Origin: Escherichia coli | GTDB lineage: Bacteria; Pseudomonadota; Gammaproteobacteria; Enterobacterales; Enterobacteriaceae | DNA: 64,000 nt | Reading direction: 5' to 3' (one strand) | Assembly: GCF_003334355.1 (NCBI RefSeq) | Contig: NZ_QOWP01000009.1 | Shown here: one piece after another, positions 1 to 420 of the stretch | Numbering within the stretch: position 1 is the stretch's first letter | Layout: each line of letters opens with the position of its first letter | Position numbers and translations under genes: made by a program | Notes under the pieces: model-generated | Told to the model about the DNA's origin: nothing | What the model saw: only the letters and a program-made list of their open reading frames with translations | The model's database searches: none

Positions 1-420
1 CGGAATGTCAGGCTGCGGCGTGCTGGGCTGATTCAGCATGTCGCCGTTTCTCCTCTCCGGCAGCATATGCTGCTGATTCAACGAACTATCCGGATTACGG
101 TTGCTGTTTAACATCCCGCCGTTGGTGTTGGGCAGCATTTGCTGCCGGGCGGGATTTCGCTCCCCCGGCTGTGACTGCAACACCCGCTGAGAATTATTGT
201 TTATCTGGTTTTCTAAATGCTGCTGTTGCAACTGAGTTTGCGTTTTCAGTTGCTGATTCAGCATCCCTTTTTGCTGGATTTGCTGCGTTTGCATCTGGGT
301 TTGCATCCGCTGCTGGCTGGGTATCTGATACCCCGGCTGGTTAGGGTTGTTCAGAGTATTAATGGGCTGTGCAAAGCCGACAAACGGCAGGAGTGCCGTA
401 AGAATCAGAAGTCGTTTCAT
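1..420 (-). CDS. yhhA: YhhA, Gln-rich secreted protein of unknown function; 5' part only (ATG at 418-420), 3' end runs off the window
   Basis: Minus-strand translation from 420 gives [19 protein letters not shown]... (signal peptide) followed by Q/N-rich low-complexity sequence, open for 140 codons to the window edge. Not in the ORF track because there is no stop. Position upstream and divergent from ggt as in E. coli. Confidence 0.8.

Follow-up and report, generated by a model that had tools for sequence, protein, structure and literature searches.

Rare in-frame length variants at short direct repeats in yhhA, a length-conserved, glutamine-rich gene of Escherichia coli

Changes of gene length at repeated DNA have a classical reference in the lacI gene of E. 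coli, whose replication-slippage spectrum consists of deletions and duplications between short direct repeats. As for small proteins of the periplasm that are disordered and rich in Met, the reference cases are SilE and PcoE, metal binders that carry MxxH/HxxM motifs. The E. coli gene yhhA invites comparison with both. It is already catalogued, as is the DUF2756 family to which its product belongs, and the mutational process considered here is a textbook one; what the locus offers is a clean example of codon composition alone giving rise to microhomology hot spots in a conserved gene of which one length is kept. The account that we hold to be very probable is that yhhA encodes a small, exported, stress-induced protein, in which short repeats made by composition give rare, one-off indels while selection keeps the 146 codons.

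The DNA analysed is a 64,000-nt stretch from E. coli, referred to below as the window. An earlier note on this DNA had assigned positions 1-420 to a partial yhhA gene, and both the coordinates and the frame prove correct: on the minus strand, translation from the ATG at 420-418 encounters no stop, the segment corresponds to codons 1-140 of 146, and an identical allele is annotated as yhhA in E. coli strain 214-4 (WP_000825996.1, 146 aa). The last six codons and the stop lie past the left window edge, the complete gene measuring 441 nt. Read directly off the sequence, a Shine-Dalgarno motif, GAGGAGG, is located at 428-434 on the minus strand, 7 nt upstream of the ATG. The 3′ end of yhhA overlaps the end of the convergent ugpQ by 14 nt, whereas ggt is divergent from yhhA and starts at window position 540, and the gene order ugpQ-yhhA-ggt is the same in every locus examined. 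YhhA matches Pfam DUF2756 (PF10956) over the whole model (positions 1-105 of 105, residues 1-105, E = 1.1e-60) and the NCBIfam equivalog NF007675/PRK10350 over positions 1-145 of 145 (265 bits, with a cutoff of 136); a family-profile sequence search for a related solved structure in the PDB returned none. Over 540 nt, the window is 99.6% identical in DNA to K-12, whose YhhA has the same full-length DUF2756/PRK10350 match and the same ugpQ-yhhA-ggt neighbourhood. There is no substantive difference between the two proteins, and the window allele, WP_000825996.1, is an ordinary one.

The far end of yhhA carries a further feature on the opposite strand. On the plus strand, window 15-54 combines a GC-rich hairpin of 12 bp (15-44) with a tail rich in U and C that comes after it; the ugpQ stop, just outside the window, is about 20 nt upstream. 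The fold of this segment is more stable than those of shuffled controls (-27.1 kcal/mol, z = -2.7), and the segment may be the terminator of the ugp operon, embedded antisense in the yhhA coding sequence. The yhhA-ugpQ pair has been listed as a convergent 'excludon' (PMC12288877). An Rfam scan of window 1-700 yielded nothing meaningful, the best match being isrG with 12 bits against a gathering score of 100.

The composition of YhhA is extreme. After a signal-like N-terminus of 17 residues, the mature protein contains 22.5% Q, 14.0% N, 10.9% P, and 5.4% M, compared with 4.7%, 4.0%, 4.3%, and 2.6%, respectively, in the long ORFs of the window, and it has no Cys, Phe, or Trp. Its richest stretch of 60 residues includes 22 Q, whereas no other long ORF of the 64-kb window exceeds 12. 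The enrichment in Q, N, and M, to which the earlier note had drawn attention, is thus beyond chance, and the two peptide strings named in it are found at residues 40-50 and 57-67. NQQHMLP, which had been described as repeated, occurs a single time (residues 115-121), with an approximate second copy, RQQMLP, at 92-97. The repeats in the protein are better described as five conserved ML[NP] motifs, at residues 53, 95, 103, 119, and 128.

Codons 1-17 (window 370-420, minus strand) read as a putative Sec-type signal peptide, with basic residues in the n-region, then a hydrophobic core, and last the small residues G-F-A just ahead of Q18. All orthologues, as well as the distant relatives, share the FAQP/LAQP motif, and cleavage is likely to occur before QP; judging from this N-terminus, YhhA is probably periplasmic. 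Codons 34-82 (window 175-321, minus strand) form the Gln-rich conserved core, predicted to be a single long α-helix: in the AlphaFold2 model, a helix spans residues 34-82 with pLDDT of 71-86, while the rest of the protein is below 50 and the pTM is 0.24. Once exported, YhhA would comprise this Gln-rich predicted helix of about 49 residues, followed by a disordered tail with four more ML[N/P] motifs.

Conservation was assessed on an alignment of 24 orthologous sequences, including those from Escherichia, Salmonella, Citrobacter, Enterobacter, Yokenella, Buttiauxella, and Phytobacter. Conserved among them are the signal peptide, an N-terminal QPxNTxNNPN, the five ML[N/P] motifs, and a C-terminal PLKTIGP, the last of which is missing from some Citrobacter YhhA proteins. 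The Gln-rich stretch contains many invariant Q/M/L columns and is free of gaps but for one duplication in Salmonella. The enterobacterial DUF2756 family is small, 1.84 billion proteins yielding 79 representatives of it at 50% identity, and its most distant members (88-110 aa) retain exactly the signal peptide and an NPSQQRMQxQM Gln-rich segment. Given that the Q-rich stretch is gap-free in the orthologues, is kept in distant members, and is predicted to be helical, it is the conserved core of the family rather than a sloppy linker. Over longer times, length changes now and then become fixed, mainly in the disordered half towards the C-terminus. In E. albertii, a deletion of 24 aa has become fixed exactly between the two QQ(H)MLP motifs, and in one Salmonella allele, 29 aa of the core are duplicated in tandem. 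The E. coli yhhA alleles collected are polymorphic at 30 sites, of which 23 fall on the third base of a codon and none on the second. This third-position polymorphism, together with the conservation across genera, the existence of distant relatives, and the predicted helix, establishes that yhhA is a real protein-coding gene under purifying selection.

Published data bear on the expression and localization of YhhA. The spacer between ggt and yhhA is bound by the RpoS holoenzyme in genomic SELEX (PMC5493296), and yhhA expression rises under several stresses and upon inhibition of LolCDE (PMC9501238, PMC5105897). A consensus scan of the spacer (window 421-539) for a sigma-70 promoter found no site; the RpoS binding fits a stationary-phase promoter, of a kind that such a scan would miss. 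YhhA peptides have been recovered beside periplasmic stress proteins in the proteomes of STEC and Salmonella (PMC9731836, PMC4265081), and the protein has been found in envelope-type proteomic fractions (PMC9731836).

At the DNA level, yhhA contains many short repeats that are dispersed rather than arrayed. Tandem Repeats Finder (TRF) reported two rows only, both at 270-307, with a 9-nt unit in 2.6 copies (score 32) and a 12-nt unit in 2.1 copies (score 43), each under the default threshold of 50. The sole tandem repeat is the 12-nt unit ATGCAAACNCAG in two copies at 283-306 (minus strand), encoding MQTQ MQTQ with 92% matches and also recorded as repeat family D4; with TRF and a direct/inverted repeat finder, no tandem array worth the name was detected in window 1-600. 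The longest exact direct repeat in the window allele is 10 nt, the longest homopolymer is a G5 run (codons 85-87, window 162-166 on the minus strand, CCCCC on the plus strand), and the longest pure run of Gln codons is three, with CAG and CAA mixed. Tandem-like repeats had been proposed from the look of the DNA: the short direct repeats do exist, but the tandem character was overstated, being limited to the duplicated 12-nt unit. yhhA has seven direct-repeat pairs that measure 8 nt or more, compared with a mean of 1.3 and a maximum of 6 in other 387-nt tiles of the window. Codon-shuffled versions of the gene contain 3.4 such pairs on average, so that the observed seven are not significantly in excess (P = 0.08). 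Most of the repetitiveness of the DNA thus follows from codon and amino-acid composition, and yhhA is not specially built to slip.

Two elements among these repeats deserve separate mention. An 11-nt direct repeat, GCAAACGCAGC, has its first copy at gene nt 129-139 (window 282-292, minus strand), which is an end point of a 51-nt indel, and its second at gene nt 180-190 (window 231-241, minus strand); in the window allele the second copy is imperfect, GCAAACTCAGT, whereas other natural haplotypes carry a perfect one. At 60-73, the codons for Q-H-M-L make up a palindrome of 14 nt without mismatch, GCAGCATATGCTGC (repeat family D2 and inverted repeat I1). It pairs with the near-palindromic Q-Q-M-L codons at 132-145 in both direct and inverted orientation (17 nt, 94% complementary), and the fixed 24-aa deletion of E. 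albertii falls between the motifs corresponding to 60-73 and 132-145.

A search of 5.8 billion protein clusters was used to survey length variants; being protein-based, it returns in-frame products only, and the in-frame bias of its results is therefore an ascertainment effect. It recovered many nearly identical E. coli-type proteins with unusual lengths of 96-165 aa, which comprise about 27 distinct in-frame indel alleles (96-163 aa). Many of these alleles are singletons from metagenome or raw-read assemblies that cannot be verified individually, but several are clearly real, being found in multiple independent NCBI isolates and in complete genomes. Relative to the 146-aa form, each variant carries a single in-frame deletion (3-50 aa) or a tandem duplication (9-17 aa). 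Nearly all indels lie between residues 31 and 116, both ends of the protein being invariant, and allele alignment with DNA mapping places most of the rare in-frame E. coli indels in a hot zone at gene nt 95-200 (window 221-326, minus strand). The 129-aa allele is present on 15 contigs from NCBI, Logan, and ENA, drawn from genomes, raw-read assemblies, and a gut metagenome, in at least two synonymous haplotypes, the 125-aa allele on 10 contigs, and the 157-aa allele on five; the 125-, 129-, 156-, and 157-aa alleles have four or more NCBI accessions each. In addition, a G5→G4 frameshift truncates YhhA to 103 aa (P0096, P0100, and P0108, small raw-read assembly clusters). Three further entries, P0033, P0034, and P0080, join the N-terminal 90-108 residues of YhhA to foreign C-termini, for example, ...SEERRVGKECRSRWSPYH, and probably represent insertion elements or chimeric contig ends within yhhA.

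The junctions of the indels are far from random. Exact microhomology of at least 5 nt occurs at the junctions of 18 of the 27 alleles, compared with 2.2 expected if size-matched indels fell at random in yhhA (P < 5e-5). Exact microhomology averages 4.2 nt, where 1.4 nt would be expected on the same basis, and none of 20,000 resamplings reached the observed value. Moreover, the same repeat pairs yield products in both directions: the 51 nt at gene nt 132-182 are deleted in P0021/P0022 (129 aa) and duplicated in P0001 (163 aa), and the 30 nt at gene nt 139-168 are deleted in P0012 and duplicated in P0003. When the 51 nt were re-inserted into the 129-aa allele, the rebuilt parent proved 100.0% identical to yhhA in three complete genomes, and this parent carries a perfect pair of the 11-nt repeat GCAAACGCAGC, 51 nt apart. 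The 129-aa allele is, in other words, the exact product expected from a deletion between two perfect 11-nt repeats. Measured on the window allele alone, its microhomology is 0 nt, a misleading value, since the deletion arose in another haplotype. The 163-aa duplication has no other mismatch to the ST131 haplotype. Such junctions bear, by their sequence, the signature of misalignment between short direct repeats; as to the mechanism, slippage would be the natural reading, RecA-independent slippage and other microhomology-mediated repair being expected to leave the same trace.

For all that, the variants are rare. All but one of the 5,426 complete E. coli genomes carry yhhA, and the hot zone was surveyed in these with a 126-nt core query and sensitive blastn at word size 11. 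The query aligns over at least 80% of its length in all 5,425, with only three at 60-80% identity. A large core indel was found in three of the 5,425, the STEC isolates (CDC) 2013C-4187, 2013C-3513, and 2014C-3051, which are related and share one identical 30-nt duplication (156 aa, WP_032323964.1), and a large indel in the C-terminal half in none of 5,424. The 560 genomes that megablast missed with the same core query do not represent deletions, as the search at word size 11 showed; they had been missed because divergent alleles share no exact 28-nt word with the query. For indels of 3-9 nt, the count in the complete genomes covers about 190 sampled rows, which showed none; all of these rows have the reference span apart from the exceptions named here. 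The gene has the same length, 146 codons, in about 99.8% of complete genomes. The proposal that yhhA could be prone to slippage and vary in length between strains therefore survives in a restricted form: alleles are not all of one length, since variants of 96-163 aa exist in E. coli and the indels recur on short repeats, but there is no array of variable copy number and about 99.8% of the complete genomes agree in length.

A few complete genomes carry damage of another kind. The G4 allele is found in five of 5,405 matching complete-genome records (N3, E686, NDM1, and F11 twice, and thus three to four strains), all annotated as 'frameshifted', which may be either real pseudogenes or homopolymer errors of long reads. 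In F11 (NZ_CP184143.1, L018 2359-2712), yhhA has an 86-nt deletion along with the G4 frameshift, and the region is matched a second time in this circular record, close to its start; this copy looks like an artefact of assembly or circularization. In strain A16 (NZ_CP028758.1, L002 1892-2708), ugpQ and yhhA have each lost their 3′ end to a 212-nt deletion; ugpE is frameshifted as well in this strain, which suggests decay of the ugp region or an assembly of low quality.

The explanation that we favour can be set out as a series of steps. The recurrence of CAG/CAA, ATG, ACN, and CTG codons would create many dispersed direct repeats of 5-11 nt without a true tandem array. Such repeats may occasionally misalign in replication, by a slipped-strand or microhomology-mediated route, each single event removing, or duplicating in tandem, 9-150 nt without loss of frame, and the G5 run would likewise suffer occasional -1 frameshifts. 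Purifying selection would then keep the 146-codon form, with no adaptive switching of repeat number. That the repeat pairs are mutational hot spots is argued by repeated events at the same pairs, which include deletions as well as duplications and occur in more than one haplotype. The frequency of variants, at roughly 0.1-0.2% of genomes, and the conserved length of the Q-rich core across genera indicate a role of purifying selection in holding the length. yhhA is, in any case, not a phase-variable or repeat-number-variable locus. For annotation, this means that length variants and 'frameshifted' calls in yhhA are to be read as rare real alleles or homopolymer errors, not as phase variation; the practical importance of the length variants is small.

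The alternative that survives best, although we think it unlikely, is that the variants are artefacts of sequencing or assembly, in the form of collapsed or expanded repeats and homopolymer errors. Most variants are indeed singletons from short ENA/Logan contigs, the doubly damaged yhhA of F11, with its second match, comes from a nominally 'complete' genome, and G4 calls are typical errors of long reads. Yet repeats of 5-11 nt are far below the size of assembly k-mers or reads and so cannot cause collapse, the 129-aa allele occurs on its 15 contigs in three independent data sources, and three complete genomes share the 30-nt duplication in identical form. Several alleles, moreover, are backed by four or more separate NCBI protein accessions, and the variants are in frame and keep the synonymous markers of their haplotypes.

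Two further alternatives grant the variants a function. It may be imagined that the length of the helix is a tunable parameter of a periplasmic stress protein, with the ML[N/P] motifs serving as binding or redox-sensitive sites and particular lengths being favoured in particular niches; candidate examples would be the 10 additional residues of the STEC clone, the 24 residues lost for good in E. albertii, and the 29 gained by the Salmonella allele. We consider this very unlikely. It is highly improbable, too, that the indels are favoured by diversifying selection, on the supposition that YhhA is secreted or exposed to the host and that its length alters the interaction. A preprint names yhhA as a validated EPEC effector with ATM-kinase-like S/TQ motifs (10.1101/364117), and identical events do recur in different backgrounds. 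The effector claim, however, sits badly with the biology of YhhA, given that the protein has a classical Sec-type signal peptide and that the gene is present in essentially all E. coli: far from being restricted to pathotypes bearing a T3SS, it is found in K-12, BL21, and DH10B, and the 5,425 of 5,426 genomes include commensal and laboratory strains. Against diversifying selection also stand the overwhelmingly synonymous polymorphism and the rarity of every variant allele, and the recurrence of identical events is explained by the repeats at the junctions.

Whether yhhA might be an adaptive contingency locus, whose tandem array changes copy number often to produce different lengths or on/off states, was a natural question, as no other part of the window is so rich in short direct repeats, the same indel turns up in more than one haplotype, and the G5 run gives rise to frameshifts. 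The reading is largely refuted and to be regarded as exceedingly improbable. Classical phase variation requires a longer homopolymer than G5. Neither a long perfect array of 1-8-nt units nor frequent length polymorphism was found, the TRF scores being below threshold with at most 2.6 copies and about 99.8% of 5,425 complete genomes having the same length, and the region in which the variants lie is the most conserved, gap-free part of the family. Finally, the view that the yhhA frame is a spurious, non-coding, low-complexity ORF, for which its extreme composition and the plus-strand ORFs at 171-344 and 217-450 could be cited, is refuted and deserves virtually no credence, as curated family models match YhhA, the signal peptide, core, and C-terminal PLKTIGP are kept across genera, the distribution of polymorphism over codon positions suits the minus-strand frame, and YhhA peptides appear in two proteomic studies (PMC9731836, PMC4265081), the two plus-strand ORFs being rejected as shadows of a CTG/CAG-rich frame.

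Returning to the preferred reading, in which composition-made repeats in a conserved gene give rare indels, YhhA and its gene can be placed among the known systems. Like SilE and PcoE, YhhA has a mature size of about 130 aa, a Sec-type signal, a largely disordered chain, and repeated Met motifs; unlike them, it contains only two His, and its motifs are ML[NP] instead of MxxH/HxxM. No similarity to SilE or PcoE was detected by sequence, nor a relative in the PDB. With Q/N-rich prion-like domains and polyQ tracts, YhhA shares a very high content of Gln and Asn, its Gln-rich part being predicted to be helical. It differs from them in that it appears, from its signal peptide, to be exported rather than cytoplasmic, and in that its Gln residues are interspersed, with at most three in a row. 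Unlike those of polyQ tracts, they are conserved position by position across genera, and the mixture of CAG and CAA leaves no expandable run.

With respect to changes in length, yhhA resembles the contingency loci of Haemophilus, Neisseria, and Campylobacter in having repeat-associated length change within the coding sequence and a homopolymer capable of frameshifts. Unlike those loci, it has no long perfect array, its variants amount to about 0.1% and not to tens of percent, and no on/off switching is evident. The lacI spectrum is a further point of comparison. The yhhA events differ from a collection of lacI mutants in being natural polymorphism in a chromosomal gene, known here from sequence alone; shared with that spectrum are one-off deletions and tandem duplications that end in 5-11-nt direct repeats, the occurrence of a deletion alongside its reciprocal duplication, and recurrence at the best repeat pairs.
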